64,000 nt of DNA from Octopus vulgaris. Its lineage: Eukaryota. This document shows positions 2,602 to 64,000 of this stretch, one piece after another (the stretch's first letter is position 1; every line of letters starts with the position of its first letter). The position numbers were made by a program, and so were the translations under genes. The notes beneath the pieces are model-generated. The model was not told the origin of the DNA and ran no database searches. It worked only from the letters and a program-made list of their open reading frames with translations. The stretch covers positions 217,062,001 through 217,126,000 of the forward strand of contig OX597814.1 of NCBI GenBank assembly GCA_951406725.2. The letters are read 5' to 3'.

Positions 2602-2612
2602 ATATATATATA

Positions 2613-7930: not shown

Positions 7931-7997
<67 letters not shown>

Positions 7998-33844: not shown

Positions 33845-34112
33845 AAGTTTATATAATTGCGCATAGAAGAATACATTAATCAATGAAATTCCAAATTAGT
33901 CTGATTTTCACATTTTATTATTTACCATTTTCACAATTTTACAATATGGAAATAAACTAGTACTTTCATGTGGACAGTTGCCAATGGTGGGACACAGCTC
34001 CCACTACATAAACCTCATGATTGCGTAAGGCATGAAAGTACTAATTTATTTCAATATTGTAAAAAAATTGTAAATAATAAAATGTGAAAATCAGACTAAA
34101 TTGGAACTTCAT

Positions 34113-34120
<8 letters not shown>
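33845..34120 (+). mobile_element. (TA)n-embedded inverted-repeat cassette with degenerate hammerhead (Penelope pLTR-like)
   Basis: Imperfect ~90-bp arms at 33875-33970 and 34032-34120; TAAAC CTCATGA TTGC GTAAGG GCAT GAAA GTAC TA ATTTA at 34009-34049. Confidence 0.6.
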
Positions 34121-34159
<39 letters not shown>

Positions 34160-34305
34160 CATAAATGAGGGCAAAGGAAAAAAATTCTAATGCCAATTAT
34201 GCCGAAAAATTGGACATATTGTCCATTAACCATATAATTTTTTCACAATACGCACGTTACTCGAAAAAAGGTCAACAGAAATTTCTAAAACATTCCATTA
34301 TTACC

Positions 34306-34360
34306 ATATCGGACCGATTTCAGAGTTAGTTACTAAGAGCCCTCTCTTCATCAGTGATAC
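34306..34360 (-). ncRNA. Type I hammerhead ribozyme motif within a (TA)n-flanked cassette (34155-34395)
   Basis: Minus strand: TATCA CTGATGA AGAG..TTAGTAACTAA CTCT GAAA TCGG TC CGATA; GUC cleavage triplet; A.C mismatch at the base of stem I. Confidence 0.7.
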
Positions 34361-34392
34361 ATGTGGCAAAAGAAATAAATGATCCTCACATT

Positions 34393-34427
<35 letters not shown>

Positions 34428-34432
<5 letters not shown>

Positions 34433-35521
34433 CAAAATAATGGAAACACCTAGCATCATAGCATTATAATTTTGAAATATCTATAAAACCATGAAAAGTT
34501 TGTTTATTTTTATGTTTTGAATTTATTATTAGTGTTGCTTAATATGTTTTGCTAAAATTGCCGTTTCCTTTGAGATATCAGAAAAAGGTAATTAAAATTC
34601 ATTAAAATGACAGATTTATCGGACTTTCATAGAGGTCAAATTGTTGGTGCTCTTATGCCAACAATTTGATGTTAGGGACTATCAGACTCTTATGCGAATT
34701 ATTAGAAAGGATCACAAAATTACATCCAGCTCCAAAATTACTGCAGAGCTTAATGACCACCTTTTTACAGGAGGGCTGCAATTTGAAAACCACCACTTTC
34801 AAAAAAAAAAAAAAACCATTGCAAGGTGTTTAGAGTGGAGTAAAAACCTACAGAATTGGTCCCTAGAGCAGTGGAAGAATGTTATTTTCTCGGATAAGTC
34901 ATCCTTTACCTTATTTCCAACCGCCAGCTGAGCATACGTGTGGAGACAGCCAAAAGAAGCATTTGACCCAGACTGCCTTCTTCCAACTGTTAAACATGGA
35001 GGAAGATCTGTGATGATCTGGGGGTCTTATATCTTGGAAATCTGCCAGCCCAATGGTTTCCCTTCATGGCAGAATTAATAGTCAAGACTATTTAAACATT
35101 TTATCTGACCAAATTCATCCTATGGTTATGGAACTGTTTCCGGAGGGAAATGCAATCTTTCAAGATGACAATGCATCAATTCACACAGCTAAAGTTGTTA
35201 CAGAATGGCACGAGGAACATTCTAGTGAAGTTGAACATCTTATCTGGCCACCGCAGTCCCCAGATCTCAATATTATTGAACATTTATGGTGCATTTTAGA
35301 AAAACAAAGGAGTCAATATCCTCCGCCATCATCACTACAAGAACTGGAGACTGTTTTAGTGGAAGAATGGACAAAAATTCCTATGGAAACAATTCAAACT
35401 TTGTCTGAGTCCATACCTTGTAGAATTTAAACTGTAATTACTGCCAAAGGTGATCCTACTCCATATTAAAATAAATTTGCTTGAAATTTTAAGGCGTTTT
35501 CATTATTTTGTCCAACCCCTG
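34428..35521 (+). mobile_element. Tc1-like DNA transposon (DD36E), internally deleted
   Basis: TIRs TTGGACAAAATAATGGAAACACC / GGCGTTTTCATTATTTTGTCCAACCCCTG|TA; the left terminus is eroded by (TA)n. Confidence 0.92.
34607..35469 (+). pseudogene. Tc1-like transposase, disrupted
   Basis: MTDLSDFHRGQIVGA..., WKNVIFSDKS, PTVKHGGRSVMIWG, FQDDNASIH, WPPQSPDLNIIEHLW, AKGDPTPY*; stops, frameshifts and N-terminal deletions. Confidence 0.92.
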
Positions 35522-36182
35522 TATATATATCTTCACATACTCAAACATGTATTTATGTAGAGATATGGTCCTGTTGGGCTCATCAGTTCCTGTCACAACA
35601 TCTAACCCATGCCAGCATTGAACATGGACATTAAATGATGTTGATTGAATATGATCCAAAGTAGATTTGGCTGTTATTTCTAGATGATCTCAGAACCACA
35701 TAGAAGCTCCCTTGTTGGCTCGTTACACTAGGCTAGATCAGTTAGGAGGCAGATGTTGCTTGTATTCATTTCCTGCAACATGAATACAGGCTATGTTGTG
35801 TTACGGCAATAATTCATTGCCAGACTACATTACCAATGTTGCACCAAAATCCTTTTATTTATTTAATTATTTGCTTAAAAACATTTTTATTCATGTTTGT
35901 GATTAGCAGCATGAAAGTCTAACATCTTAAGGATGGGGGCTGAGTGCTCCATCACAATTACACACTGACCCTCACATGCAAAAAACCTGTCATATTTGTG
36001 TGTGCATTTTATAAATAAATGAATATATATATATATATATATATATATACATGTGTGTGGGTATATATGTGTGTATATATACCGAATAATTGTCACATAT
36101 TATATTACAGATATGTGTATATATGATAGAAATATTAAAATTACTAAGTCTCTATAAAAGAGATTACGACAGCGTTTACTGG

Positions 36183-36228
36183 AAATTAATTGTTATCGCC
36201 ATATTAATATGGCGATAACAATTAATTT
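36183..36228. repeat. Perfect 46-bp palindrome
   Basis: AAATTAATTGTTATCGCCATATTAATATGGCGATAACAATTAATTT equals its own reverse complement. Confidence 0.95.
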
Positions 36229-37384
36229 GTGTATATATGTATATGCATATATGTATATATGTTTAGGAAGGGTATCCAGCTGTAGAAACATTGCCAGATC
36301 AGACTGGAGCCTGGTGCAGCCTTCTGGCTTCCCAGACCCCAGTCGAACCGTCTAACCCATGCTAGCATGTAAAGCGGACACTAAATGATGATGATGATAT
36401 ATGTATCTGTGTGTGTGTGTATATATATGAATGTATATGTGTGTGTGTATACATATGTATATCTGTGTGTATACATATATGTATATCTGTGTGTATACGT
36501 ATGTATATATATATATAACACATACATACATACATATAATATTTTATGATGTGCCCCCTCTCCAGTATTATTCTGTTATTATTCCTGCTAACTTCAAACC
36601 CTTTTATAATTCAGCTTCTGATCATTGTAATCAGGTTCTCAACCAACCTGTTCTACACACCTATAGTATTTGTATACCCAGTTGTTAACATCTGTTCTCA
36701 TATCACAACCTCTCCCATATGCAATCGTATAAACATACAAAGCACTTCTGCAAATCTTTTAACGCACTGACATGCATGCACACAAGAACACCTTTAATAT
36801 CTTCACTTAGTACTAGTACCATACTGCGGGTACTAAATCTGAGTGGGAACTCAAACATTTTACCCAAGGTAATCTAGTACATCACTTTGGAAAATACATG
36901 CCATATGTTTGGATGACATCAAACCAGGTTTATAATTAGTAATGAAAATGTGAAATAGAAATACTGGGGAAGTATATATTAGTACTGTACCTCAAACATA
37001 TATATGTGCATATCCCTGTTTATACAACTATAAGGAAAAAGTATGCAAAATAAGGTTAATTACAATAAGGGTGTAAAATTTTAGCACAAGGCCTGCAATT
37101 TTAGAAGGAAGGATTAAGTCAAATACACTCCAGTGCTCAATTGGTATCTTATTTTATTGACACTGTAAGGATGAAAGGCAAGGTTGATCACAATAGGATT
37201 TGAGCTCAGAATGTAAAATGCCAGAAGAAATGCTGCTAAGTATTTTTACAACATAATAACAAGTCTGTCAGCTCATTGCCTTAAGATTCATTGTCATTTA
37301 ATATCCACTTTTCCATGCTTGCATGGGTCAGATGGAATTTACCGAGGCAAATTTTCTACTGCCAAATGCCCTTCATGTTATCAA

Positions 37385-37830
37385 CCCTTGTTTCCATGAC
37401 AAGCGTACACACACACACACCTGATGGGCTTCTTTCAGTTTCCATCTACCAAATTCACTCATAACGCTATGGTTGACTTGGTGCTATAATAGAAGATACT
37501 TACTCCAGTTTCCATCTACCAAATTCACTCATAAGGCTATGGTTGACTTGGTGCTATAATAGAAGATACTTACTCAAGGTGCAGTAAGTAGATTTGGTTC
37601 ATGGAAACTGAAAGAAGTCCATTGTGTGTGTATGTGTGTGTGTTCCTTGTTTCCATGACAAGCGTACACACACACACCTGATGGGCTTCTTTCAGTTTCC
37701 ATCTACCAAATTCACTCATAAGGCTATGGTTGACTTGGTGCTATAATAGAAGATACTTATTCAAGGTGCAGTAAGTAGATTTGGTTGATGGAAACTGAAA
37801 GAAGTCCATCGTGTGTGTTCCTTGTTTTGA
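37385..37830. repeat. Tandemly duplicated head-to-head SINE junction
   Basis: CAGTTTCCATCTACCAAATTCACTCATAA..AGAAGATACTTA occurs three times; the opposite-strand GATTTGGT..ATGGAAACTGAAAGAAG occurs twice. Confidence 0.8.
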
Positions 37831-38862
37831 CATCACATGATAATTGTGAATGTATGTGGTTGTCATACACCATACAGGCAATGTCATTCATTTCCAATAT
37901 TCTGCAGAAACATGTCTGACTATGAGGAAAATATTGCTTACTTGGAAACATATGAGGTTTGGTAACAGGAAGGGCACCCAGCTGTAGAAAATCTGCTTCG
38001 GTAAGCTCCCCCATCCAACCCATGCAAGCATGAAAAAATTCACATTATGATGATATATTACATTGATTGACAAAACAATGAAGGTATCTGTGAATGCTGC
38101 TAAAATTAACAGCCAAACCTCCTTAAAATTACGAGAGAGAAAGAGAGAGAGATTGGATAATGTATTCCTAGGTAAACTATGTCAAAACGAAAGTAAATAA
38201 CAAAATGACTTATCACTGAAATGTCTTTGAGTATAAGTCTGCTCAAACAGAGCTGATGTGGAGTGAAACAATAATAATAAGCAGTCAGATTTATTGACAA
38301 AATACATCATTTATATGGAGAGAAATCATTCAATGGTTGCCAACATAAGTTGGCATTCTTGAAAGATTTACACCCATAATAAAATCCATTACCTACACTT
38401 TAATAAAGCAATATGTTGAGTCAATGAGAGAAACCACATGTTGTCACACAACTTGTAGGAAATAGTTATTTTGCAACAAATTACACCTGAGTAAAAAAAA
38501 AACCCCAGGATGATTATGGTTGGAATACCATAGATCATATATCTGCTACATCAAAAGTAACCACGGGTTAAACAGCAGTGCCAAAATATTTCACATAAGT
38601 CTATCAAACTTATTCCTTCTTATAATAAAACAAAGTAACTGCACTGATTGCAATAAAAAGCAAAATTACAATATTTGATTATTAAATAAACTGTCAATCA
38701 ATTTTCAAATCGCGCGCGCGCGTGCATATTTGGTTTTGTTCCTCCTCATATTGTAAAAGTTACAACAAGTTCACTCAGCATGAGGGTGGAGCTCAGGTAT
38801 CTGGGATGGTGTTTTTTCAATACTCCCTCCACCACACACACAGTTATGGGCTGTATTAAAAT

Positions 38863-39183
38863 AGTGGCTGTGTGGTTAAGAAGGTTGCTTTATAACCATG
38901 TGGTTTCGGGTTCAGTTCCATGAAGCATCTTGAGCAAGTGTCTTGCGAGTGAATTTGGTAGATGAAAGCTGTGTGGAACCCACTGTGTGTGTGTGTGTGT
39001 CCTGATCACCACTTGACAATGGTATTTGTTTACATCTCTGTAACTTAGCAGTTCAGTAAAAGAGGCTGATGGAATAAGTACCAGACTTTAAAAAATAAGT
39101 ACTGGTGTCAACATGTTTGATTAAACCCTTCAATGTGGTGCTCCAGTATGGCCAAAGTCCAGTGACTGAAGCAAGTAAAAGAT
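38863..39183 (+). mobile_element. SINE family A, older copy
   Basis: GTGGCTGTGTGGTTAAGAAG head through GACTGAAGCAAGTAAAA tail. Confidence 0.75.
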
Positions 39184-39382
39184 GATCCTGATAAAGAACC
39201 CTTCACTCATCAACACAATCCAATAATTTACCTATCTTCAAAACAGCAGATAAGAGCAAGTTCCTCCACTATTCTGCTGCTATTACAATAGTTGGTGATC
39301 TTTCGGAGAAAGCCTATCAAAATTGAAAGTGTTTAGCAATTTCTGTAGAAAATTTTAATTCCTTTCATTTTTTTCAGCTGAA

Positions 39383-39620
39383 TTTTTTTTTTTTTTTTTT
39401 TTTTGTACTTGTTTCAGTCATTTGACTGCGGCCATGCTGGAGCACCGCCTTTAGAGTGGTGAAAGAGTACAGCAGGGATCACCACCTCCTGCCGGAGCCT
39501 CGTGGAGCTTTTAGGTGTTTTTCGCTCAGTAAACACACACAACGCCCGGTCTGGGAATCGAAACCGCGATCCTCCGACCGCAAGTCTGCTGCCCTAACCA
39601 CTAGGCCATTGCGCCTCCAC
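39383..39620 (-). mobile_element. SINE family D with family A-type tail and poly(A)
   Basis: Head and body match 26697-26862; tail is GGCGGTGCTCCAGCATGGCCGCAGTCAAATGACTGAAACAAGTA. Confidence 0.88.
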
Positions 39621-39696
39621 TTATGTTTATGTATTTTTTGTGCACATTTGTATATATACACACACACATACACAAATACACACACACACACATACT

Positions 39697-40110
39697 CTTT
39701 ACTCTCTTTTTACTCTTTTACTTGTTTCAGTCATTTGACTGCGGCCATGCTGGAGCACCACCTTTAATCGAGCAACTCGACGCCGGGACTTATTCTTTTG
39801 TTAGCCCAGTACTTATTCTATCGGTCTCTTTTGCCGAACTGCTAAGTAACGGGGACATAAAAACACCAGCATCGGTTGTCAAGCAATGCTAGGGGGACAA
39901 ACACAGACACACAAATACACACACGCATATATATATATATACATATATAAGACGGGCTTCTTTCAGTTTCCGCCTACCAAATCCACTCACAAGGCTTTGG
40001 TCGGCCTGAGGCTATAGCAGAAGACACTTGCCCAAGGTGCCACACAGTGGGACTGAGCCCGGAACCATGTGGTTGGTAAACAAGCTACTTACCACACAGC
40101 CACTCCTGTG

Positions 40111-40112
<2 letters not shown>
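39697..40112 (-). mobile_element. SINE family A, young
   Basis: Reverse complement of 11823-12232. Confidence 0.9.
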
Positions 40113-40160
<48 letters not shown>

Positions 40161-41222
40161 TACACACACAAAAAGAAAATACATAAAGATAAGTGATCCT
40201 TCTGAAAAAAAAAATTTAAGAAATAAAAATCATTTTATGAAAATTGCAAAACAAATACTTTCAGTTATGATAGACTTTCTCTGAAAGATTGCCCAATAAT
40301 TTATGCTCGTCTAAATATTTTGATTCTACACTTTCAAAGCAATACATCACTCACTTCTTCCCCTCATTCTGTCTTCATCCAAAACCCTGCACTTGGTGTT
40401 TTGCCCAATTCTTCCTGTCTAGAACTTGCAGTCTTCAAGGGAAATATCTTCCCCATTTATACTCCAACCTCAATTATTGAGCTTCTGTCAGCACCAACCT
40501 TTAATGGAATTAATTTTAACTGTTACCTATTTCACCAATGAAGCAAGGCCTAGAAAGGTTATGAGGACAATCTTTTAACTTCAATCTAAGATGTAAAAAT
40601 AATACTCCTGATTTATATTTACAAAATCCCTTTATTATTGTAGTTTGTAATGACACCTGTCACTAAAACAACATTCAAGGCTGTGTTGTTTATCCACAAC
40701 CTTTGCAGAACTTACTTATAGTTTTATATTTTCACTGTGTTATGGAAAGCAGGTCATCTCTCAATAAACTTCGCCCACAATAGTCTTTCAAGTTTTTCAG
40801 AGATGTTTACCAGTAATACAAAGTATTGCATTTGAAATGGAATTTAGGACATTTGCATTTTAAATGACTTACTAAAAATCAACCGTAGCTTTGTACACAT
40901 CAGTTTATATTTTGTGCCCTGCCCTGTTTTGATTATCTGGCAAACTAGTTTTGCTTGATCAATAGCTACAACATACACTTATTCGTCAAATATATCTTTC
41001 CTGTGTTGTATGTCTAAGATTTTGTCACCTGTAGCTCCCCAGCCTTATTAAAACCCAAATTTCTTAGTCTATTTCAATACTATTAAGCAATTATTTAAAC
41101 ATGTACTACTCAGTAGGTTTCCTTATTCCTTAATTATAATCTTCTGACTCAATACATAATGTTACAATCTTCAAAACATCTGACAGTCAAGTATTTCAAT
41201 AAGGATGGCCTTCTTCATGGCA

Positions 41223-41612
41223 TACTCTTTCTCTCTTTTACTTGTTTCAGCCATTTGACTGCGGCCATGCTGGAGCACCACCTTTAGTCGAGCAAATCGA
41301 CCCCGGGACTTATTCTTTGTAAGCCCAGTACTTATTCTATCGGTATCTTTTGCCGAACCGCTAAGTGATGGGGACGTAAACACACCAGCATCGGTTGTCA
41401 AGCAATGCTAGGGGGACAAACACAGACACACACACATATATATACATATATACGACGGGCTTCTTTCAGTTTCCGTCTACCAAATCCACTCACAAGGCAT
41501 TGGTCGACCCGAGGCTATAGTAGAAGACACTTGCCCAAGATGCCACGCAGTGGGACTGAACCTGGAACCATGTGGTTGGTTAGCAAGCTACTTACCACAC
41601 AGCCACTCCTGC
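41223..41612 (-). mobile_element. SINE family A, young
   Basis: Reverse complement of 11823-12232. Confidence 0.9.
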
Positions 41613-41867
41613 ATCTGCATGTGTACAGAGCATTCTTCTTTAACGCTTTGGTGTTTGCATTATTCTACCAAAATTAATGCTTTTTCATCCAAATTGTTTT
41701 GAATTAATCATGCATTATTTTGTAGCTATGAAATTTTGATGAAGTAGCTATTAATTTTTAAAACGATATTGTAGGGTTGGTGTGAGAGACCAGATCTGGC
41801 CAGTTTGAACATAAAACAGGCAGAAAACTTTTGGCCGGACATGGCCGGTTTAAATGCTAAAGTGTTA

Positions 41868-42245
41868 ATGAATAGAAACCTAAACTATAAAGAACTTCAA
41901 AATCACCCCGATGGTATGTATACCAAGCTTCCCATGAAGGCTCAAAATATCACATGACATGGGCACAAGACCAAATAAAAGATATATGAACACCGTTTCA
42001 CCCATCTCTACTATTACTATTCTTGCTCAAAACAGAGCAGGCTTTAGTGGGCATTCCTATCATTCTGAACACCAGGCCATATCACATTATATTTCAGAGA
42101 CTTCCACACCCTCTTAGAGAAGACCACTCAGACACCATGATATAATTGCTGAGACACACAACTTAAAATTAAGGACCTACCAAGGCAAATTGGGGACAGA
42201 GATTCCTGGTGCATTTGGGTGAAATGCATCACTGTTGCAGCTACT
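41868..42245 (+). pseudogene. Old 3' fragment of an RTE/RTEX-type LINE (third lineage)
   Basis: Hand translation with stops and shifts: ET*TI..ELQNHPDGMYTKLPMKAQNIT*HGHKTK*KIY..LAQNRAGFSGHSYHSEHQAISHYI..RRPLRHHDIIA, resembling the RTEX pattern DGxYTRLLxxAxNIxW...RxxFAGH...GRP. Confidence 0.65.
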
Positions 42246-44493: not shown

Positions 44494-45566
44494 CCCTTTC
44501 GTTACTATATTTCTGACCAAAATACACCCCTTATGTGTTTCAATTAATTTCTAACATAATCATAAATTTAGTCTGGTTTCATTAAACAACTATAACTTTT
44601 TTATTTATCAATATATTAACGTAAATTTTGGAAGATAATTTAATGAAATGTTCTCAACCAATTCTATACTATAATTTTTGTCACAAAGTGACTCTAATTG
44701 CAGGTAGATACAGGTAAATTCAAAATATAAAATTATTAAAATTTTGTTTAAACATCGCTATAGAAAATGGGTTATTAGCTAATATTCAATTGGGTATACA
44801 ACAAAATTTTACGATAGAATTTGTTATTCTGGGTAACTTTCTGATACCCATAATAATATTTATGGCAAAATAGTCTTAATTTCATTTAAGGTTATGGGAA
44901 ACCACTAACTATCCTTTCTTTCACTTTGTTTACATTTAGCGTAATGGTTTGTTTCCGCTGTAATGATTTCAAATAGGCTCATTCGAAAAAGTAAAAAGAA
45001 ATAGTCTAAGGCTTTACTCTCCTGGGAAAGTCTGTGGCTTGGTCCAGTTTCTTCAGAAAAATCACCGAAAGAAACAGTTTTTAAATTTTCACTCCATTCA
45101 GGTGCCAATTCATTTTCTTTATCGCTGTCGGAGCTCTCGGATCCACCGTTTTCACTTTCGGAAAATGAAACATCAGATTCATTATCAAATACCACATGCT
45201 TTTTTTTTTCAGTCATAGAGTTAGATTTATGAAGGTCTTCAGTAGAAAATCCTTCGAATTCTGACTCGCTGCTTGATATAATGAAATTCGTATCCATTTT
45301 TTCTCAGAATTACAAATTTTGAAAACACAATAGGAACAAATTTCGGAAAAAAATCTCCCAAAATTCACGGAATTAAAATTACACTTCGATTTTTGTACAA
45401 AACTGTAGTTGAACTCTTTACGAAGTATAATACGTATTTTCACGAATGTACTAAAGAGATTTGCTCTGATATTCTCATTTAAATATGAATAGGTAAATTC
45501 GGGCAGCTTTGGGCGGTTTGGTCACATTAACCAAAATTTTTTTCGGGTGGTTTGGTAACGAAAGGG
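44494..45566 (-). mobile_element. Internally deleted piggyBac transposon
   Basis: TTAA|CCCTTTCGTTAC ... GTAACGAAAGGG|TTAA, perfect 12-bp TIRs and TSD. Confidence 0.93.
44905..45297 (-). pseudogene. N-terminal fragment of a piggyBac (PGBD4-like) transposase
   Basis: Acidic Ser-rich N-terminus, then FSEETGP..KALDYFFLLF..LFEIITAETNHYA; the catalytic DDD domain is absent. Confidence 0.88.
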
Positions 45567-45885
45567 TTAAGGGATCATAATGACTCGCTATTTCATGTGG
45601 ATTTCCTGAAATTATATATATTGTTCTTCATCACATCTACACTTATCAATGCTCATGATGCACTACAAAAAGCTTTAATGTTGCTGTCAATGCCATCAAC
45701 TGTCATTCTTTGTGTTGAGCTGATCCATACACTGGCAAGAAGAGACTGAGAGACACCCTCCCCACCCATAAGTCCGTTCAGTAAGTGTGTATCTTACTAT
45801 GTTAGCTTTCTGTACTACTTCATCCTCAGTCCCCAAACCAAACATGTTTATCAGGGTGTCCTTTAATTCATCCTCAGAAAGCATA

Positions 45886-51473: not shown

Positions 51474-52522
51474 TTAAGAAAACAGTTGAAAATCAAGAAA
51501 GCGGGATAGCAATTTAGGCATAAGGTAAAAGTATGTGACATTCATGCTTTCCACAAAGTTATTAGCAATATAAATGGAGTGAATTAGGTTAAAAACGGGG
51601 ATCAAAAGTGGGTTGTAGATTTAGACTACTGGAATCCATCACCTCAGTGGCAACATTAATAATAATAGTCTGTAGACAGTATGGCTGGGTGTGTTTGTTG
51701 GGAAGAATGAAGAAAGACATGGAGTAAATATTGTAAATAAATTTATCCTATTTACACAGCGACAATCAATTCTAAATTTGAATAAACATTTCATTTCCTC
51801 TTCAATAAACATTCAGCTCTTTAACAAAACATGTGGACGGCAGAAAGTGTGTTACGTAACCCTGGCTAATACATGTAGGCTTCTGAACGAAGAGATTTAA
51901 TAGGTTACAAAGAATAGGGAAAACACTGGAATAATACGATATAAAAATAAATGAAAGGACAAAACAGGAGACTATATGTGTGTATTTGTGTGTGTGTGTT
52001 TGTTCATGTGTAGCTATAACGAAGCAAATGTTATCCAGAAATATATAAACTGTTTAGTGACAAAATAGACACACTGAGAGCTACATTTCCTATAAAAGTT
52101 TTCTATGTTATAAAAATAACATTACTAAAAAACTGTGCATTTGGTTTTGCTTTGTGACTCTAAACTTGTCTTTAGAATATAACAAAAAAAAAAAAAAAAG
52201 AAGAGGGAAATGAAGAGGTAGAGTTCACAAATGTATTCATTTAGATGGATGTGTCAGAGCATGAGCAGGTTTAGAAGGTGTGCCTCAACAGATCAATCAG
52301 TGAAGTGTTAAAAATCATAGATCTAAGCTCCTGTCCAAGTCTAATTTAGCAATAGGCATGAGTTTACAGAGCCTATAGTAGTAGCCATAGGTAAAGTTGT
52401 GATCAGCAGAACTTTGTAAATGCCTAACAAAAATTTTCATCTTGGATATTCTTAGAAGTGGAGCCTGCCTGATCATGAGTCATGTCTCATGTGACCCGCT
52501 TCTTGAAAAAGGTTACCCTTAC

Positions 52523-52596
52523 CTGGCCTATAGTTTGACTAGAAATGACAGCCATAACAAACCAAGGGGTAGAACCAGCATACATCTCAGATTGAT
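52523..52596 (-). other. Candidate non-coding exon (74 nt)
   Basis: Minus strand: CTTATTTCTTTAG| acceptor and CAG|GTAAGG donor. Confidence 0.35.
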
Positions 52597-55149
52597 CTAA
52601 AGAAATAAGATCTAAATCTGATAGCTTGTTACTGAATTGTAACCCATAGATTTGTGCCCATATATTTTCCACAAAGGGCAAATTATCAGCTGTATGAATG
52701 AACACCTTACTAATTTGGCCATTTATTGAGTAGCAATGAATTATGAAAAACAGTGATTTTGAAGTTATTTAAATAAATTGCAACTAATCATAAAACAATT
52801 CCTCACAGATGTAGTAGAAAAGTTGGTTGGACAATGGCAATTAGCTTAGGGGCTATAGAGAAAGATGAAAGCTGGAAGGAAGAAACAAATGGCTCATTTA
52901 TGATGAAAACCCAGAACAAATTAACAATCAACCTATTGTGTTAAGTGGTGCCCTTAATATGGATATTAGCTTTGCTTCTGTGAGGGGTTTTATAATTCAT
53001 AATAATGAAGCACTGATATTTTTAATCAATAGAACTTGATTTTTTTTTAAGGATTTCTAATATATGTAACAAAGCTTTCACCAACAGCCTTGTAACATGT
53101 GCTGTAAAGAACTTGCAATACCCCAGACACCAGTATAGTATTTAAAGGGATAAAACATGCACTTCTATATATATAACTTCTATTGCTGTCATAATTAGTC
53201 AAATGCTGCTCTTATATATTCAACACTGAAGTCTTTCTCACTTTAGTCATAATTGATCCAGTGTAGGGATAGGTAACACCAATTTGCATATTGCAAAATG
53301 CATTGTGCAGTTCAGGTATATGACAAGGTGTAAATCGGGATTTTTCTAAGAAGCTACATACTTCGTAGATAGTGTTTGTTCAATCACAGTACATACAACA
53401 ATATTAGAACACAGTAGTAGACTGAGCAAATGACCTACTAGAAACAGAAGCCAAATCCCTCTGGTCTTAAACAATTAGATATAGATGCCCTTAAAAAATT
53501 AGGATGATCAGAGCTTTACATTTTTTTTTGATGATAGGTTTACTGAGTCAAAGTTGACCTGGGGTTAAATAACATAGCAGTGGATCAAAGTATACATCCA
53601 CCAGTAATCCAGTGTTCAAGATACACAATAATTCACAGTATATGCTTACTACAAAATACACACACACACACATTTGTTGCTCAATGTCTCCCACACAAAC
53701 ACACAAACTGGTGAAGCAATAACTGCAGACACTGGAGATCAATATCAATACATTACACAAACTATTAAAAATTTACACGTATCCATTCACACATCAGTAG
53801 ATTAAAGTCTCAATACATTCGCGAATCAATGCGAGTGTATGTGAATATGATCGCTGTTGAGAGTCCCTACTACTAGAAATAGCAGCTCTCGGTCTACACG
53901 TAGCAGTCTCTAAAAAGGACATGATGGACAAGAAGGTAACGAACTGGCAGAACTGTTAGCACGTCTAAGTTCAAATTCTGCCACGGTCAGCCTCGTCTTT
54001 CATCCTTTTCGAATGCGATGAAATAAGTACCAGTTGAGCACTGGGGTCGATATGATCGATTAGCACCGTTCCATATCAAATGTCAGACCTTGTGTTTATT
54101 AGTAGAAGGGATTACTACAAAGAAAAACAAAACACGGGATTGTCATATCTTGAATGCCTTTGTCAAAGGTCTACTCAACAACTGCAGCTAAACAGTCAAG
54201 GAGGAAGTCTTCAGTTTCAGCAGTGGCAGATAAGAGATGTTCAGATAGAATTGTTGGCAAATGAGGAGTGCTAACAAAGAGGTTACGAGTTGTGCGTGGG
54301 TGGAGGCAGCCTTCGAAAGGAAAAGGCCAGATAGAGTGAACTGGGAGGGTGAGAAAGACAATTGGGAACTTGACCTGTGAACTTGTAACCTTTCAACAAA
54401 CGTTATTATTATTTCAATAGGTGGGAACATGTAGTAGAAACATGTTAACGTAAATGCATTTACGAGTGCCGGAACACGTTGACCTTTCCTGGGAATTAAT
54501 TTACTAATAACCAGGAAGAGGAACAAGTGTGTGAACTGAAGTTATCTTTTGCCTATCTATTGTATGTATCTTTCTCGGCCATCTATTATCTTCTGTCAAA
54601 GCATGATTATAGTTATTCACGCCAAGATGAAACAGAATTTATTAATGAACAATACATAAGAGAAAACACTTATGGTCCGAGGGGCGAGAGATGGTCATCG
54701 TCAGCAACAATAAACAGTTAATAGAATTAGTTGGTGTGAAGATGAGTTCCGAAATTTATCTCCAGCTTTAAACCTTTTTAACAAAGAGAAAATAATCGAA
54801 CACGCATAAAGAGAAGGCCGATCGAAGACTGAAAGTCAACTTAAAGCATCGAGAACATATACGTTGTACAAACATAACAAAACATCTGATATGACCTATA
54901 TAAAAAATGAAAAATAAGGCGAACGATCAGTTGACATTTTCCAGTTGCGAGTCAACACGTTTTTACATTCTTTGACAACTATATATTTAAAGAGGTCTTA
55001 GTTGAACCCTTTATGGACGGGAAACCCAGGGTAAACTCATAAACCGGCCATCACCAGATAAAAATATAGACTGCTCTATTTCTTAAAGTGTGCTTCTTCG
55101 GATTTATGTTTTTTTAAAAACTATATATATATATTATTTTATAGAAGGA

Positions 55150-55198
55150 GCTTCTACAGGACTAGAACTGTTTCATTCAAAAGAAATCATCAGGAAGC
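55150..55198 (-). ncRNA. Type I hammerhead ribozyme motif (inverted copy)
   Basis: Exact reverse complement of 55300-55348. Confidence 0.72.
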
Positions 55199-55299
55199 AA
55201 GCGCCATGCCTACCCCCAAAAAAGTCCCCCACCACCACCCATTTTAACCCATTTTAACCTGCCTAAATGTATAAATACCAAAACAACTCTTGTCTAATT

Positions 55300-55348
55300 G
55301 CTTCCTGATGATTTCTTTTGAATGAAACAGTTCTAGTCCTGTAGAAGC
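55300..55348 (+). ncRNA. Type I hammerhead ribozyme motif
   Basis: GCTTC CTGATGA T TTC TTTT GAA T GAAA CAG TTCTAGTC CTG TA GAAGC: stem I 5 bp, stem II 3 bp + U.U, stem III 4 bp, GUA triplet (predicted cut after 55343). Confidence 0.75.
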
Positions 55349-55431
55349 TCCTTCTATAAAATAAATTAATTTACTCTGCTATGTATTGAGTACCTTATTT
55401 ACTGTGGTTAACCCCGACTCAACCCGGGACC

Positions 55432-55473
<42 letters not shown>

Positions 55474-57066
55474 CACACAATTGTTCGTAATAGAAATCTT
55501 GTCAATAAGTATTGAAAGATATTAAAGGAAGACAAACAATATTGTAAAATGTATTAGAATTTTAGCCATGAAAGAATGCCAAGTTATAATCCTTTTCTTC
55601 ATTTAATGCTATGTGAAAAGACTATATTATTTGCAATACTTTAAGAGAAATCACAAGTGTCAGCGAACAAAGAAATGGTGACGCGATTCCATGGTAACCC
55701 TTTTACTTCGTTTGCGTTGCTTATGCCGCTTGAAATGGATATGTTGGATTCAATAATGAATATTCTGGTTGTTCGATCAACTGAACTGCCTGCTCATTGA
55801 TTTGTAATGTGAGAAAGTACTCCACAGACACATGTACTCTTAATCTTATTCACAAGCAGAATTAAGATTATAGTGCGACACTGTATGGCAAAGCAACCCC
55901 CCCCCCATTCTCGGAATTACAGTCGGGCTGACAGAATTATGCATTTTCCGTCAGTTTTTGTTTCACTCTTAAAGTTTAGGTAGACTTATGGCTACAATAA
56001 AAGTCACTTGACCACGATGACATGAATTGAGAACAAACCCGGGACCTCATAATTGCGAAGCGAACTCTTTAATCACTTGACCAGGCTTGAGTCCTAATTA
56101 ATCTAGTGGCACTGCAACGCTGTATGAGAAATCAAAATCGTGTATCTGTTGTTTCACAAACACCTTGATGTGACACACTGTTACACGTTTGCAACAAATG
56201 TAGTTAGCCTTTAGCCTCACGCGTTGGACTTCACACACAAATATTCTCTTTTATTCTTTTTAAAAAAATTATTTCACAGTAAACATATTGCGAGGACGGG
56301 TTTATAAGTGGGACAGTCAAATTTTAATGAAATCAAAGACTTTTGCTGTACACAACTTAGCCATAGTTAATTTTGAATTTGTTTCCACAGTCACTACACA
56401 GTGCGTGTGTAATTACTTACATACGGAGCATACATACAAAAACAAATAGGCTCCCAGCGTGCTTCAAACGTGTAATGAAGTGCTGAGTAACAAAGCACAT
56501 GCAATTAAGTTGCACATATCCAACTTTTAGGTTGTCATAATAATTATTATAGGTTAGAAAGACAGTATTTAATGACTAGCAGCTTGTTTTAATTGACCCC
56601 GCTGACACTGAAGGCGTGTAATTAGAGCAACGTCAAGAGGTAGATCGGAAGGAGTGAGGGTGGGGCAGAGCAGAGAGAATAGGTGTATAAGATTAAAAAC
56701 AAAAACCAATTGAAACTACGTTGTTCTGACAATCTTAATGCGTAACATTTTAAGAAATGAATGAGTTGACGTGGGAAAGGCGTTGGCGGGTTTCCCATAC
56801 GTTTAAATCCCACTCTTTATTTCTCTAAAAACAGGGAGAGAAAAACAACAGTTATAGAGGTAGTGATGGGGGTATTCTTATTACTTCTGTATTTTCTTTA
56901 AACAAACAAGGTAGATTAATAGTATCATGAATATTGATTACGTGGGTAGGCATGTCATTGATTGAGTCGACACATATATGTTGCTAATACTTGGGTTATT
57001 GGATCTGGAAGGACAAAATATTAAGTATGAACTTCAGACCGAGTATAATGAAACTATACTGTAATA

Positions 57067-57232
57067 CAGTGGTTCTCAACCTGTGGTCCGCAAAGATAGT
57101 ACTAGAGGATCATGAACTGAATTCAGAATTTCATATATACATACATACACACACACACAAGGATAAGCATATTAAAAGGGGTCCGTGGGAAAATTCATTT
57201 AAATAAAATAGTGAAAATGTTGAGAACTACTG
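57067..57232. mobile_element. hAT/Charlie-like MITE
   Basis: TIRs CAGTGGTTCTCAAC / GTTGAGAACTACTG; degenerate 8-bp TSD CTGTAATA / CCGTAATG. Confidence 0.8.
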
Positions 57233-59337
57233 CCGTAATGCATCTAGTTTGACACTTTAAATGCTTCAATTATCTTTACATCCCTTCGTTGTGTATAGAT
57301 AATAATAATAATAAATAAACCAAAAATTATTGTAGATATAGATGAAACTGAAGAAATACAATGAGTTTACAGAGATACACACTTGGGCGAAAGTAAAGAA
57401 TAGGCACACCCGATGTTTACAGTTTTTGTTACACCGAAAACGGGTGGAGTACGTAAGTTTATGAAAATACTTGGGATTGAAACCAAACCGTGCGCATTCG
57501 ACTCGCCTGGAATTTTCTCTCTCTCTCTCTCTCTCTCTCTGACCTCATTGGTTTTATTTAAAAAGAAAAAATAATAATAAACGACTGAAGCAGGTGTGAA
57601 AATAGTTATGTTTAAGATAGGTGTTATCAAATTTCTGCTCTGCCAGAGTGGTTTTGTGAGAGTAATCAGTTAAAATAGCTTTGGTAGAAAAAGTTTTCTA
57701 GTTTTAATTCGACTTGTTATTAATGTAAATGGAGGTGATAATAGTGGGGAAAAAGACGAAGTGTTTTGCTCTGGAATTAAAGTATGTAGTGGTACTAGTA
57801 TCGTATGTAGTATATGTTGTATAAACCACGCAGACTCTGCGCACAAAGTAGAAAAAAAATTAAATACAGAATATACGCGAACTAACAGCGAGCGAAGGGT
57901 GCTTGAATGACAGACGAAGTGGTTGATAGAAAACTACTTCAGTTTATGAGACACGAGTGTGTAAATATACGTACCTGTATAAATCAGGGGACTTATCCGT
58001 AAACAGTATGTTATCATAATCCGAATAAGAGGACATTCTCCGAAAGGATTTCATCATTGAAGAACTGGGCTGCAGGTCTCCTCTCTGGATATGTGTAATG
58101 TATAGAGAATGGAGAAGTTTTTAAACCAACTTCTGTTTTTCCCGTATTATTACCTGTTGTTGAATTTTTTCTTTATTCGTTTGTTTCGTTGCCGAACTTT
58201 GATAAAACTAACAAATCAGTACTGGGATTCATGGTTAATCTTAATCGTGTACAGTCCAATGATTCGGTCGTTTAAAGTTGATTTTATTTAATAACAAGTC
58301 AATAAACACGCAGATAGAAAACTTGTTAATAGAACAGTGACCATCCTACATTGTCATTATAAAAGTTGTCAAAAGCAGGTAATATTATATATACTCATAT
58401 GTAAGTAAGTATATATACTTACTTATACATACATACATAACTTAGTAGAAGTGGCGGTGCGATGTTTAGCTGTCTATTACAGGTAGTCAAATCATTAGCA
58501 GCCACAGAAAGGGAAGGAAGACTGATAGTTTTCCTAAATGTAGAGGCGGTCTATTTGCCGGTAATATCTGACACCTTATTCATTCTCATACTGTTGCTTG
58601 CAACTAATTCAGTCATAAACTTCGCAGACACAATAATACCCACGCTCACTCTGCCTTCTTCTCACCTCTTCTCTCCTCTTATTCTTCACCACAAATGTTT
58701 TCAATAAACAGTCCCGTAACTCTGTCTATTGTTTTCGCCTTATTTATTTAACGATGTGAGGGACACACACACACATAAAAGAGAGTGATGTTTATATATT
58801 TATATACACACAGCTGTCTAGAACGCGGGAAATAGTACTCAATACAAGATTATTATTAAACTTATTCGGATGATGCAGTATGTACCGTTACTCCGAGTTC
58901 CTGCCTACAACCTCTTTACCCTACAAAGAGTATATATATACATATATAAGGGGTTAAAAACAACAAATTAGATACAGTTTATTTTCTACCGTATCATATA
59001 TATAAATATATATATATTGTGGTGTAAAATAGCGCTCACATTTGGAAGTTTCGAGCTGTGGAACCACTGGTACCATCCGAATAAACAAATTAATTTTTCT
59101 CTTCTCTTTGAACATACATATATAAGTTATGGTCAAGATTTTTGAAGTTATTCTGCGATCATCGATTGTCAAACGCGTTGAGAGAGAGGAAGGGGTTGTT
59201 TTATCACAATAGAAATATTTTGTTTCCTCATATTTGTCAGAAATATTTATGAAATTGTCTACAAAGACCTTGGGCAAGTGCCTTCTGCTATAGGCTCAGG
59301 ATTTGGTAGATGGAAACTGAAAGAAGCCCATCGTGTG

Positions 59338-59402
<65 letters not shown>

Positions 59403-59611
59403 AATATTAGGGAATAAATCCAAACTTACAGGGAAAAATCAGATTTAGGATTGAATCCAATTTTATAGTAAAATATTATATTATATTAAATTAGAGATAA
59501 AACCACTATTAGGCAAATCATACAATGAAAAACTTAAGCCAATACATAAGATTATTTAATTTATATTATTTAAATATATAACAAAATTATTTAAAAAAAT
59601 ATAATTAATAT

Positions 59612-59680
59612 AACACTACGATCGTTTCATGGCTGTTAATTTCTTTAAATTTTCGAGTTACAGTCATTCATCAGGTGGTT
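59612..59680 (-). ncRNA. Type I minimal hammerhead motif within a (TA)n-flanked cassette (59399-59711)
   Basis: Minus strand: AACCAC CTGATGA ATGACTGTAA...TTAACAGCCAT GAAA CGATCG TA GTGTT; palindromic stem III ACGATCGT; GUA triplet. Confidence 0.75.
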
Positions 59681-59707
59681 TAAATATTTAACTTGGCGAG
59701 GTTTAAT

Positions 59708-59711
<4 letters not shown>

Positions 59712-59759
<48 letters not shown>

Positions 59760-59876
59760 CATATATATATATAAATACATACACATACACATATATATAT
59801 ATACATATACATACATACACATACACATATATATATATATACATATACATACATACACATATATATATACATACAT

Positions 59877-59909
<33 letters not shown>

Positions 59910-59960
59910 CACATACATACATACATACATACATATATACATACATACACATATATATAT

Positions 59961-60043
<83 letters not shown>

Positions 60044-60048
60044 TATAC

Positions 60049-60079
<31 letters not shown>

Positions 60080-60084
60080 TATAC

Positions 60085-60115
<31 letters not shown>

Positions 60116-60180
60116 TATACACATACATACATACATATATATATATACACATACATACATACATACATATATATATATAC

Positions 60181-60211
<31 letters not shown>

Positions 60212-60212
60212 T

Positions 60213-60245
<33 letters not shown>

Positions 60246-60254
60246 TATATATAC

Positions 60255-60285
<31 letters not shown>

Positions 60286-60294
60286 TATATATAC

Positions 60295-60325
<31 letters not shown>

Positions 60326-60340
60326 TATATATACACATAC

Positions 60341-60371
<31 letters not shown>

Positions 60372-60378
60372 CACATAC

Positions 60379-60411
<33 letters not shown>

Positions 60412-60414
60412 CAC

Positions 60415-60501
<87 letters not shown>

Positions 60502-60523
60502 CATACATACATATATATATACA
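59712..60523. repeat. Compound (TA)n/(TACA)n/(CA)n microsatellite
   Basis: Direct inspection; source of the long YIYI/HTHT pseudo-ORFs. Confidence 0.97.
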
Positions 60524-60561
60524 TAAATTGATCAAAATAAAAACATGATGCGAAGGATTCA

Positions 60562-60639
60562 GCGGTACATATGTTTCGGGCCTTTATTAGACAGATTTAT
60601 AACAATGCATAATGTATGTCTGTGGCCTTCTTCAGCCGC
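60562..60639 (-). ncRNA. Type I minimal hammerhead motif (inverted copy)
   Basis: Reverse complement of 60963-61040. Confidence 0.75.
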
Positions 60640-60962
60640 GCACAACAGCTTCCACAAGGACATGTGTTACATCAAAAATTCTTGGTTGGGGATGCAAATC
60701 CTCCCATTCGCGTACGACATAATGCGGCAGCAGCATAGAATTGAAGCGTCCATCTCTTTCTTCTCTCAATGTAGGATGAGAGAAGAAAGAGATGGACGCA
60801 ATACATCAATACATCAATGTATCCCCAATACATTGAGAGAAGAAAGAGATGGACGCTTCAATTCTATGCTGCTGCCGCATTATGTCGTACGCGAATGGGA
60901 GGATTTGCATCCCCAACCAAGAATTTTTGATGTAACACATGTCCTTGTGGAAGCTGTTGTGC

Positions 60963-61040
60963 GCGGCTGAAGAAGGCCACAGACATACATTATGCATTGT
61001 TATAAATCTGTCTAATAAAGGCCCGAAACATATGTACCGC
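60963..61040 (+). ncRNA. Type I minimal hammerhead motif
   Basis: GCGG CTGAAGA A GGCC ACAGA...TCTGT..GGCC C GAAA CATATG TA CCGC; palindromic stem III ACATATGT; GUA triplet (predicted cut after 61036). Confidence 0.78.
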
Positions 61041-61147
61041 TGAATCCTTCGCATCATGTTTTTATTTTGATCAATTTACTCCACCACCTACACCACCAAA
61101 CGGTATACACAGGTGCTTATAATTATCAAGTACTCACCCCGAATTTC

Positions 61148-61326
61148 TATATATATATATATATATACATACATACATACATACATATATATATATATAC
61201 ATACATACATACATATATATATATATATACACATACATACATACATATATATATATATACACATACATACATACATATATATATATATATACACATACAT
61301 ACATACATATATATATATATATACAC

Positions 61327-61357
<31 letters not shown>

Positions 61358-61476
61358 CACATACATACATACATACATATATATATATATACACATACAT
61401 ACATACATACATATATATATATATATACATACATACATACATATATATATATATATACATACATATATATATATAT

Positions 61477-61507
<31 letters not shown>

Positions 61508-61560
61508 CACATACATACATACATATATATATACACATACATACATACATATATATATAC

Positions 61561-61601
<41 letters not shown>

Positions 61602-61730
61602 CATACATATATATATATATGTGTATATATATATATATACATACATATATATATATATATATATATGTGTGTGTATATATATATATACATGCATACATAT
61701 ATATACATACATATATATGTATATATGTAT
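61148..61730. repeat. Compound (TA)n/(TACA)n microsatellite
   Basis: Direct inspection. Confidence 0.97.
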
Positions 61731-62291
61731 GTGTCAGTATCCCCAATATCGCGTGACAACCGATGTTCCCGTAACTTAGTGGTTTGGCAAAAGGCACTGA
61801 TTGAATAAGTACTAGGTATACAAATAATAAGTCCAGGGGTTTATTTGTTCAACTAAAGGCGATGCTCCAGCATGGCCACAGTCAAATAGCTGAAACTAAC
61901 AACTGAATAAAAGGGTACTCTTCAGAGTGTGTACTTTACAATTATATCGTTATTTAATATGAAAAAGAATATTGGTAGACACAATATTTTTTAGAAATTT
62001 CAAGTTTCATTTTGTAAATCTATGTGATGTGTGTCAGTATATATGTGTATGAGCACAACAGTTTGTTCTTTTTTCATCTATTAAATTCCTTTGCTTTGTG
62101 CCGTTGCTTGGCCTGCCTGAAATAGAAACTGCACAATGGATAATGTAGTCCTGGGTACATTATTTTAAAAAAGAGGAAAAGAACCCAGAAGTCCTTTTAT
62201 CATAGGTTTCTTTAATTAGTCCTGAGCTGGAGTAAAATAAATCCATTTTCATGACATCATATATATATATACATATATGTATATACATATA

Positions 62292-62700
62292 GGCGCAGGA
62301 GTGGTTGTGTGGTAAGTAGCTTGTTTACCAACCACATGGTTCTGGGTTCAGTCCCACTGCGTGGCACCTTGGGCAAGTGTCTTCTACTATAGCCTCAGGC
62401 CGACCAAAGCCTTGTGAGTGGATTTGGTAGACGGAAACTGAAATACGCCCGTTGTATATATGTATATATATATATGTGTCTGTGTGTGTTTGTGTGTCTG
62501 TGTTTGTCCCCCTAGCATTCCTTGACAACCGATGCTGGTGTGTTTATGTCCACGTTACTTAGCAGTTCGGCAAAAAGAGACCGATAGAATAAGTACTGGG
62601 CTTACAAAGAATAAGTCCCGGGGTCGATTTGCTCGACTAAAGGTGGTGCTCCAGCATGACCGCAGTCAAATGACTGAAACAAGTAAAAGAGTAAAGAGTA
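62292..62700 (+). mobile_element. SINE family A, young
   Basis: Near-identical to 11823-12232. Confidence 0.92.
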
Positions 62701-62860
62701 TACACGTGTGTGTGTGTGTGTGTACAAGCATGGATGACTGAAGATCTTTTTCTTTGCATACTTATGCATGATACATAACATACATACCTCTCTTGAATGT
62801 GTTGACAATTTCAGTAAAGTTTGCTTAGCATATAGGAAATCATCATCATTATTATTACAT

Positions 62861-63075
62861 AAGGCAGTGAGCTAGCATAATCATTAGCATGCTGGATTAA
62901 ATGCTTAGTGGTATTTCGCCCATCACTCTGTTCTGAGTTCAAATTCCTCTGAGGTCAACTTTGCCTTTCATCCTTTTGGGGTCAATAAAAATATGTACCC
63001 ATTGTAAAACTGGAGTCAACGTAATTGATTCATCCCCTCCCCCATAATTGCTGCCCCTGTGGCAAAATTTGAAAC
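62861..63075 (+). mobile_element. SINE family B
   Basis: AAGGCAGTGAGCTAGCA head and GGTCAACTTTGCCTTTCATCCTTTTGGGGTCAATAAAA block. Confidence 0.82.
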
Positions 63076-63491
63076 CCTCATTATTATTATTACAGAGGTT
63101 AGGTTGTTTTTTTTAGCTGCAGGTCAGCTTTAACTAAGCACACCTGTAATCAGAGATATTCCAGTTCTACCTATCCTGCCTTTTTACTGAAGTACAAGTG
63201 ACACATTCGCGTATGTGATTTCAGAGAGGTTTGCAGCTATTTCTATCAGGTTGAATGATCACATGGAGATATCATCATTGACATGTAGGCCAAATTTATA
63301 CCAGTAATATAAGTAGTAGTCGAGCACTGAGTTTATGTAAGGGATTGTAATCCTTCCTCACCATAACCTTAGGACTTATGCCTCATTATAGGTGCAGGCA
63401 TAGCTGTGAGGTTAAGAAGCTTGATTCCAAACTAGGTGATTTCAGGTTCTGCATGGAAGGTGGATGTTACACAATGATAATGATGATGATG

Positions 63492-63533
<42 letters not shown>

Positions 63534-63752
63534 TATAATTATTAGGGAATATTACTTCTTAGTACACAGGAAAAGGACATTCACATTCGATGTACTAAAA
63601 TGAACATATTTTTTACTCCTTAAGTTTTTAATATTCAGTTATTATTTTTATTTATTTTTTATTTGCATTTCTATTCATTTGTACGTTGATAAGTAAGATT
63701 ATATCGAAGATATAGAGTATCATGGACATATATAAGAGGTAGGGAGGAATCT

Positions 63753-63852
63753 AGACCTGAAGATTGAGAGTATGTCGACCCGAGTAAGTATTGAAACTAG
63801 ATACCTCGTAGCTAATCGATACCGATGTACTTTCATGAAACACGTGTAGTCT
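63753..63852 (+). ncRNA. Type I hammerhead motif with long branched stem II, within a (TA)-flanked cassette (~63530-63985)
   Basis: AGAC CTGAAGA T TGAGAGTATGTCG ... CGATGTACTTTCA T GAAA CACGTG TA GTCT; 13-bp stem II including G.U pairs; palindromic stem III ACACGTGT; GUA triplet. Confidence 0.8.
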
Positions 63853-64000
63853 CATAAACGGAAAATATAGGATTCAGAATAGATATAGTTTGTATAAGAT
63901 TTAATTTTTAACATTTTCGGGAGTGGTCGGGTATAAAATCTTTCAGTGTTGATTGAGTTGAAGGTGGTTCTGTCTCTATACAAATATATATGCATAAATA

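Follow-up and report, generated by a model that had tools for sequence, protein, structure and literature searches.

Penelope-like elements (PLEs) of the Hydra clade have been listed with a preference for (TA)n targets, canonical hammerhead ribozymes, an inverted 5' copy and an octopus member, and both tails and inverted 5'-truncated copies have been described for PLEs (PMC8557442). In a lizard Poseidon element, the tail is bracketed by two start sites of the reverse transcriptase (RT) (PMC11167929). The annotation of octopus repeats reports 31 recently active Penelope-like families, and its available sections make no mention of 'ribozyme' or 'hammerhead' (PMC13282606); in our search of the literature on octopus or cephalopod hammerheads, PMC8557442 was the sole relevant source found. 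Here we describe six short cassettes, c1 to c6, in a stretch of 64,000 nucleotides (nt) of the Octopus vulgaris genome (contig OX597814.1, positions 217,062,001 to 217,126,000), hereafter the window. An original prediction, made from the letters of the window, had pointed to hammerhead motifs in all six.

Our analysis makes it highly probable that the cassettes are the 5'-truncated, often fold-back 3' ends of several PLE families, four of the six being traced to parents encoding RT and a GIY-YIG endonuclease, together with one likely non-autonomous passenger of 503 nt, and that each carries a type I hammerhead predicted to cut the element RNA. The descriptor used for such hammerheads specifies the core elements CUGANGA, GAAA and UH in that order and helices I to III, open at helix I; it was applied in two versions, a stricter one first and then one permitting a 3-nt loop III, which adds c2. 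With the second version, the whole window holds seven hammerheads in five cassettes (two each in c3 and c5, one each in c2, c4 and c6), and the stricter one finds six motifs against a mean of 0.035 (maximum 1) in 200 dinucleotide-shuffled windows. The window copy of c1 is a core-mutated hammerhead, its core reading CUCAUGA (34014-34020) and the first pair of stem I being a C-A mismatch; most of 30 rows of the c1 family have CUGAUGA and a paired stem I, so the family form is intact. All six cassettes border (TA)n runs. The predicted positions and flanks, the motif in every cassette with one mutated core, and a frequency well above that of shuffled sequence were all borne out.

In c3 and c5, each arm of a perfect inverted repeat (67 nt and 250 nt, respectively) carries one hammerhead, and four of the cassettes are fold-backs or carry an inverted arm. 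A palindromic stem III had been expected in most cassettes, which holds for c1, c4, c5 and c6 but not for c3, whose stem III is a true 4-bp helix with an 8-nt loop and no palindrome. The near-palindrome ATCGGT proposed for stem III of c2 was rejected, as it leaves a mismatch beside the core; a better parse pairs AUCG with CGAU around a 3-nt loop (interrupted palindrome AUCGG-U-CCGAU), with the cut after UA. No PLE coding sequence was found within the window. The features are as follows.

c1, 33846-34118, both strands: probable end of an old Neptune/Nematis-type PLE, a fold-back remnant; the tail-bearing arm, on the minus strand, retains only the GAAA half of the ribozyme, and the inverted arm is on the plus strand.
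c1 hammerhead, 34009-34048, plus strand: damaged copy, stem III palindrome AGUACU.
c2, 34158-34396, minus strand: piece of a 503-nt non-coding head-to-tail unit; the long arm, on the minus strand, ends at an internal site, and about 15 nt of the tail end lie on the plus strand (34382-34396).
c2 hammerhead, 34302-34359, minus strand: descriptor match 34354-34307; stem I of 5 bp, stem II of 4 bp, stem III of 4 bp; predicted cut after 34307.
c3 (whole cassette 55134-55433), inverted arm, 55134-55200, minus strand: without tail; second intact hammerhead at 55193-55155.
c3 direct part, 55201-55433, plus strand: putative Hydra-type PLE 3' end (pseudo-long terminal repeat, pLTR, plus tail) of the family with a 722-amino-acid (aa) open reading frame (ORF); hammerhead at 55305-55343.
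c4, 59400-59710, minus strand: young short element end with a 73-nt tail; hammerhead at 59674-59617, stem III ACGAUCGU.
c5 (whole cassette 60524-61147), inverted arm, 60524-60773, minus strand: 250 nt, 100% identical to the direct arm, without tail; hammerhead at 60635-60566.
c5 direct part, 60829-61147, plus strand: putative young Hydra-type PLE 3' end (pLTR plus 69-nt tail) of the 842-aa-ORF family.
c5 direct-arm hammerhead, 60967-61036, plus strand: stem III ACAUAUGU.
c6 (whole cassette 63535-63980), tail-bearing arm, 63535-63607, minus strand: reduced to the tail alone.
c6 long arm, 63608-63980, plus strand: pLTR of a putative older Hydra-type PLE.
c6 hammerhead, 63757-63848, plus strand: long stem II, stem III ACACGUGU.

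The strongest link to PLEs comes from longer copies elsewhere in the genome. Upstream of c5 lies a 3' untranslated region (UTR) of 1.6-2 kb and then an ORF for RT and endonuclease; a protein search brought up many copies whose frames are open over about 842 aa, and the intact order pLTR-ORF-3'UTR-pLTR is present in loci L181 and L183 (842 aa). Similarly, c3 is preceded by a microsatellite-like UTR of 2.4-3 kb and a second RT and endonuclease family, of which 125 of 132 matches are 80-100% identical, with full units in loci L257 and L258 (ORFs of 722 and 718 aa). For c6, a decayed RT and endonuclease sequence lies about 1.4 kb upstream (loci L380 and L381). The order is RT and then a C-terminal GIY-YIG endonuclease in all three parents, as a single intact ORF for c3 and c5 and in decayed form for c6. 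The RT motifs read RWA/DKT in c5, RWR/DKT in c3 and KWK/DKT in c6, so that the third residue of RWK varies and DKT replaces DKG, and the translations, which lack CCHH, share a CxCX5C linker together with CxxC and CxH flanking a conserved E and N. Identity between the c3 and c5 proteins is no more than about 33-36%, and both families combine a pLTR bearing a canonical hammerhead with (TA)n insertion. A homologue search with the parent RT gave 32 matches, the named ones from octopods, and RT relatives carry PF26215/PF00078; when restricted to longer proteins, the search gave no match. A first label, 'Neptune', for c3, c5 and c6 was dropped when Hydra motifs were found instead, and by these motifs the three parents are assigned to Hydra-type PLEs.

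Several further observations concern these families. The 3' UTR of c3 (2.4-3 kb; L140, L142) is built of TA/TG microsatellite-like sequence, and its truncated copies would therefore seed microsatellite-like DNA and new (TA)n targets. Further Hydra-type families (L188-L198, L221, L233) have intact ORFs of 941-1091 aa, asparagine-rich inserts and covarying hammerheads, and the pLTR of a 727-aa Hydra-type family (L251:2000-5800) contains a hammerhead-like core, missed by the descriptor, whose stem II is very short. Four of 7 long c6 copies begin at a common point that lies about 36 nt downstream of a TATA-like box, and a splice-donor-like site follows (L150:7574-7610); the box and the clustered starts would fit a promoter inside the pLTR.

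The parent of c1 appears to be of another kind. In locus L376, a decayed RT (YLDD at 5848) is followed by a cysteine linker (6464), a GIY-YIG endonuclease (6575-6710) and a hammerhead (7905); the endonuclease part also lies upstream in locus L378, and the atlas gives GIY-YIG matches at 0.95. This order suggests a parent of Neptune/Nematis type, less securely so than the Hydra parents; the pattern of a CX2-5CxxC linker and CCHH can be recognised, but each has one cysteine replaced in the decayed copy. Repeated CCAAT-like boxes were seen upstream of the c1 hammerhead (L316 upstream). The proposal that the cassettes are truncated pLTRs, with longer copies joined to RT and GIY-YIG, is upheld for c1, c3, c5 and c6, whereas 50 loci examined for each of c2 and c4, some overlapping, gave no such parent; the tandem monomers also looked for were found for c2.

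The copies throughout the genome share an anatomy that is familiar from PLEs. First-look candidates number 750 for c1, 2380 for c2, 400 for c3, 1276 for c4, 1781 for c5 and 433 for c6, which are rough counts of family size as only 40 per cassette were scored. The top copies are 97-100% identical to the window copy for c3, c4 and c5, 95-97% for c2, 83-88% for c6 and about 67-90% for c1. Among the best-scoring copies, which are not a random draw and from which six duplicate rows were removed, a fixed 3' end followed by a TA-type run was found in 30/30 for c5, 20/20 each for c3, c4 and c6, 16/19 for c2 and 8/15 for c1, and an inverted arm within 1.5 kb upstream in 13/30 for c5, 7/20 for c3, 14/20 for c4 and 10/19 for c2. 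The common layout runs from (TA)n through an inverted arm reaching an internal A/T-rich site, a junction and a direct arm reaching the tail end, to (TA)n again. The tail-less arm ends 67-73 nt before the 3' end in c3, c4 and c5, and about 32, 90 and 105 nt short of it in c1, c6 and c2, respectively. In the window, the direct arm of c2 and c6 is only a stub, and c4 has no inverted arm. The cassettes had been called unrelated, and most pairs indeed give no blastn match; the sole exception is the pair of c4 and c6 family tails, which align with a score of 81.5 against 56.6 ± 6.1 (maximum 75.5) in 300 shuffles.

Based on these observations, we propose the following model. The parent would be transcribed from a promoter in the upstream pLTR, the RT-endonuclease would nick a (TA)n run, and complementary DNA (cDNA) would start at the end of the RNA tail by target-primed reverse transcription. 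Synthesis would usually halt within a few hundred bases, so that mostly the hammerhead-bearing end is inserted, and a second priming at an internal A/U-rich site would give the inverted arm without a tail. The ribozyme probably trims or circularises tandem transcripts, acting in c1, c4, c5 and c6 as a dimer through a palindromic stem III, and in c3 and perhaps c2 as a monomer; it does not define genomic 5' ends. Cleavage as the cause of those ends was considered and rejected, since ends do not pile up in c5, c4 or c2.

That the fold itself is maintained is indicated by variation among copies. The covariation set consists of 12 copies of another Hydra lineage, distinct from the six families, chosen by downstream flank alone; they are 12 of 20 flank-picked rows, the eight omitted being two truncated or fused, one masked and five near-duplicates. 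In this set, 93.9% of cells are paired and five of 14 pairs show two-sided change, and the covariation score is 0.298 against 0.171 in shuffles (reached in 0 of 500) and 0.00-0.12 when the alignment is slid. The stem covariation anticipated among genomic copies is thus present in this related lineage. Over 1.9 Mb of loci, which overlap and are enriched, 378 matches to the descriptor, which itself requires pairing, fall into 38 clusters, and the helices pair in every family. Stem III is palindromic or near-palindromic in 35 of the 38, position N7 is A in 16, U in 14, C in 6 and G in 2, and G10.1-C11.1 occurs in only 12. A core kept intact while stems are re-paired across families implies selection on the RNA fold. 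The hammerheads are predicted to self-cleave the element RNA.

The families are dense as well as diverse. A sample of forty 10-kb stretches, placed at round coordinates of 26 contigs (400 kb of a 2.8-Gb genome), holds 21 motifs against 0.12 in shuffles, with 15 of the 40 stretches positive and two pairs of motifs being the arms of one insertion; five dead-core decoys gave 0, 0, 0, 1 and 2 matches on the same sample. A (TA)6 run lies within 300 nt of 15 of the 21 motifs, against 35% of random places (p 0.0007). Both the dense, diverse population and the (TA)n preference of the original prediction are supported. Extrapolation gives a genome total of about 147,000 (Poisson 91,000-225,000; bootstrap 84,000-210,000), and the genome likely holds about 100,000 hammerhead motifs. 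The window, with its seven motifs, has roughly double the mean rate, an excess within chance (p 0.055). Published counts, obtained with differing descriptors, are about 9,000 in Xenopus, 4,000 in coelacanth, 5,000 in mussel and up to 120,000 in axolotl. The axolotl genome is about 10 times larger. It is an evenly balanced question, in our judgement, whether this is the densest animal hammerhead reservoir described, with about 100,000-200,000 intact-core motifs (about 50/Mb) in dozens of families, spread by a still-active Hydra-clade radiation whose non-coding passengers, the 503-nt unit among them, are copied round a multimeric or circular RNA and bear the Penelope marks of tail, inverted arm and TA target.

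The 503-nt unit of c2 (variant 474 nt) is repeated head to tail, up to four units to an array, and accompanied by partial copies in inverted orientation (L145, L146), with four direct units in L146 and a type I hammerhead in each unit; no ORF of at least 150 aa was found from the unit. When copies were picked by the unit start, 29 of 30 had 6-397 nt of the preceding unit's tail upstream, and only 1 of 30 ended within 10 nt of the cut site. The c2 copies run through the ribozyme that they carry, so the template would be an uncut multimer or a religated circle, and c2 was likely copied by a Hydra-type enzyme from such multimeric or circular RNA. We regard c2 as a likely non-autonomous, retrozyme-like passenger of PLEs. 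A preprint of 2026 argues that retrozymes derive from pLTRs (Li et al., 10.64898/2026.07.22.740005). Our search for an RNA record holding c2 found none; contigs from runs guessed to be RNA span the unit and its end-to-start joint, which is no evidence of circles because genomic tandems contain the same joint. In two guessed-RNA runs from different studies, a form of c2 lacks 53 nt that comprise the 5' strand of stem I and the first part of the core (L145:5922-5974). This form is deeper than the intact one and its ends do not fit a canonical intron; the deletion appears in 0 of 65 genomic matches.

The c4 lineage stands apart. In 50 loci, some overlapping, the non-inverted sequence that its copies share reaches only about 70-110 nt beyond the core on the upstream side, and heads bearing other hammerheads carry the same 3' half. 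A c4-type 3' end occurs in six of the 40 arbitrary 10-kb stretches with different hammerhead heads (L207, L215, L220, L221, L229, L235), which suggests a very large lineage with a shared tail. An unseen element related to the c6 family is the likely source of c4, which would be either its end or a short derivative.

Could all six instead belong to a separate class of short non-autonomous ribozyme mini-elements, resembling retrozymes or short interspersed elements, that borrow only the Penelope enzymes? The tandem 503-nt units of c2, with no ORF, fit such a class, as does c4, in which no more than about 110 nt are shared upstream and the 3' half joins heads with different hammerheads. However, c1, c3, c5 and c6 run upstream into PLE coding sequence, and we consider this account improbable; the retrozyme-like class of the original prediction suits c2, and a separate mini-element class is not needed for the set. 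Still less credible is the notion that a loose descriptor matched A+T-rich repeats by chance. Although it would accord with the missing Rfam match and the weak folding energies, the excess over shuffles in both the window (6 vs 0.035) and the 400-kb sample (21 vs 0.12), together with decoys yielding 0-2 matches, refutes it, and we give it practically no weight. A more serious suggestion, which we nevertheless think unlikely, is that the hammerheads are passengers whose shape is conserved but which transposition does not require, or which have no activity in vivo. The cut site shows no accumulation of ends, catalytic mutants of the Poseidon element left insertion in vitro unchanged (PMC11167929), and Naiads thrive without canonical hammerheads (PMC8557442); yet the core is kept with N7 free to vary, and stems are re-paired across families. 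This suggestion bears on function alone and does not conflict with the identity of the cassettes as PLE ends.

Our preferred reading, of PLE ends bearing ribozymes that cut element RNA, has a number of results weighing against it. As to identity, searches of the parent ORFs gave no RT or GIY-YIG match in Pfam, and a PDB search with a parent ORF gave no match. The Hydra assignment was made by motifs, and the c1 link comes from two decayed loci with zinc-finger cysteines partly replaced. No autonomous parent of c2 was found in 50 loci, some overlapping, and none of c4 either by 5' extension in 50 such loci or by tail search. As to the ribozyme, an Rfam search of the cassettes returned no hammerhead family at E<=10, only microsatellite-driven microRNA noise. 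Minimum-energy folding gave a clear hammerhead-like fold only for 63748-63858 in c6 (z -2.6), the other five motifs having z of -1.4 to +0.9 and not being the minimum-energy fold. The covariation measures least prone to relatedness are weak, with shuffles doing as well in 37 of 500 cases for pairs with change and 202 of 500 for pair-type counts. Only 0 of 10 c5 arms and 2 of 27 c4 arms end within 3 nt of the cut site; as copy ends do not cluster there, the DNA holds no trace of cleavage. Finally, published PLE hammerheads cut slowly and as dimers (PMC4209133), and another cuts only with protein and is dispensable for insertion in vitro (PMC11167929).

Beyond the cassettes, decayed fragments at 3332-6178, 9784-10760, 34611-35430 and 44905-45303 were noted from the ORF list of the window; these are presumably LINE-like (long interspersed element; AP (apurinic) endonuclease/RT), RTE-like, Tc1/mariner-like and piggyBac-like. 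Different families also stand back to back in one (TA)n run, both in the window (33846-34396 and 59400-61147) and in loci L120 and L251. Each insertion supplies a target for the next element in the same (TA)n run.

The families described here offer material on the role of the hammerhead in Penelope elements, namely young families with intact ORFs, near-identical copies and a covarying series with long stem II loops, while the retrozyme-like c2 unit with Penelope insertion marks offers material on the enzyme responsible for moving retrozymes in animals. If the density is as estimated, many of the introns and UTRs of this animal would contain self-cleaving motifs. If the radiation is active, the young intact 842-aa enzyme and its passengers would allow a direct test of retrozyme mobilisation by Penelope enzymes and of the purpose of the ribozyme.

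The elements belong to known kinds; the density of about 150,000 motifs and the unusually long 3' UTRs and tails are what we did not find in print. The kind is already known because the parents carry motifs described for the Hydra clade, whose insertion into (TA)n and canonical hammerheads are on record (PMC8557442). The original prediction allowed that its novelty would fall if every family were the end of a catalogued Penelope element; this largely applies, given the Hydra motifs. What remains of interest is the motif density, the length of the UTRs and tails, the passenger of 503 nt and the orphan lineage of c4. Members of the Hydra clade such as Hydra-1_Obim and Penelope-13_HM share RW[K/R/A], DKT, CxCX5C, and CxxC/CxH around E and N with the parents of c3, c5 and c6, and also the (TA)n targets, 5'-truncated inverted copies and a hammerhead close to the 3' end whose stem II often has U-U at its base (PMC8557442). 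In contrast, the published members are mostly below 3 kb with a short stem II and tails described as 30-40 bp (PMC8557442), whereas here 3' UTRs are about 1.4-3 kb, stem II loops reach 50-90 nt, tails are about 67-105 nt, and stem III is mostly an even-length palindrome. The c1 parent resembles Neptune/Nematis PLEs in its RT, cysteine linker, C-terminal GIY-YIG and optional tail of about 32 nt (PMC8557442); it is known from decayed copies only, and the two clades could not be separated.

Published hammerhead sets of about 2,000-9,000 per genome show the same type I fold, a small palindromic helix III, many families per genome, mostly single motifs from truncated elements, and opposite-strand pairs 100-700 bp apart. 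They were obtained with another descriptor, against about 150,000 extrapolated here, where G10.1-C11.1 is found in only 12 of 38 clusters. Metazoan non-LTR retrozymes (PMC7229834; 10.64898/2026.07.22.740005; LTR, long terminal repeat) are like c2 in their non-coding head-to-tail units, a type I hammerhead in each, and co-occurrence with PLEs. Their described units are 150-450 nt against 503 nt for c2, and c2, known from DNA, differs in occurring mostly as dispersed truncated copies with the PLE marks of tail, inverted arm and TA target.

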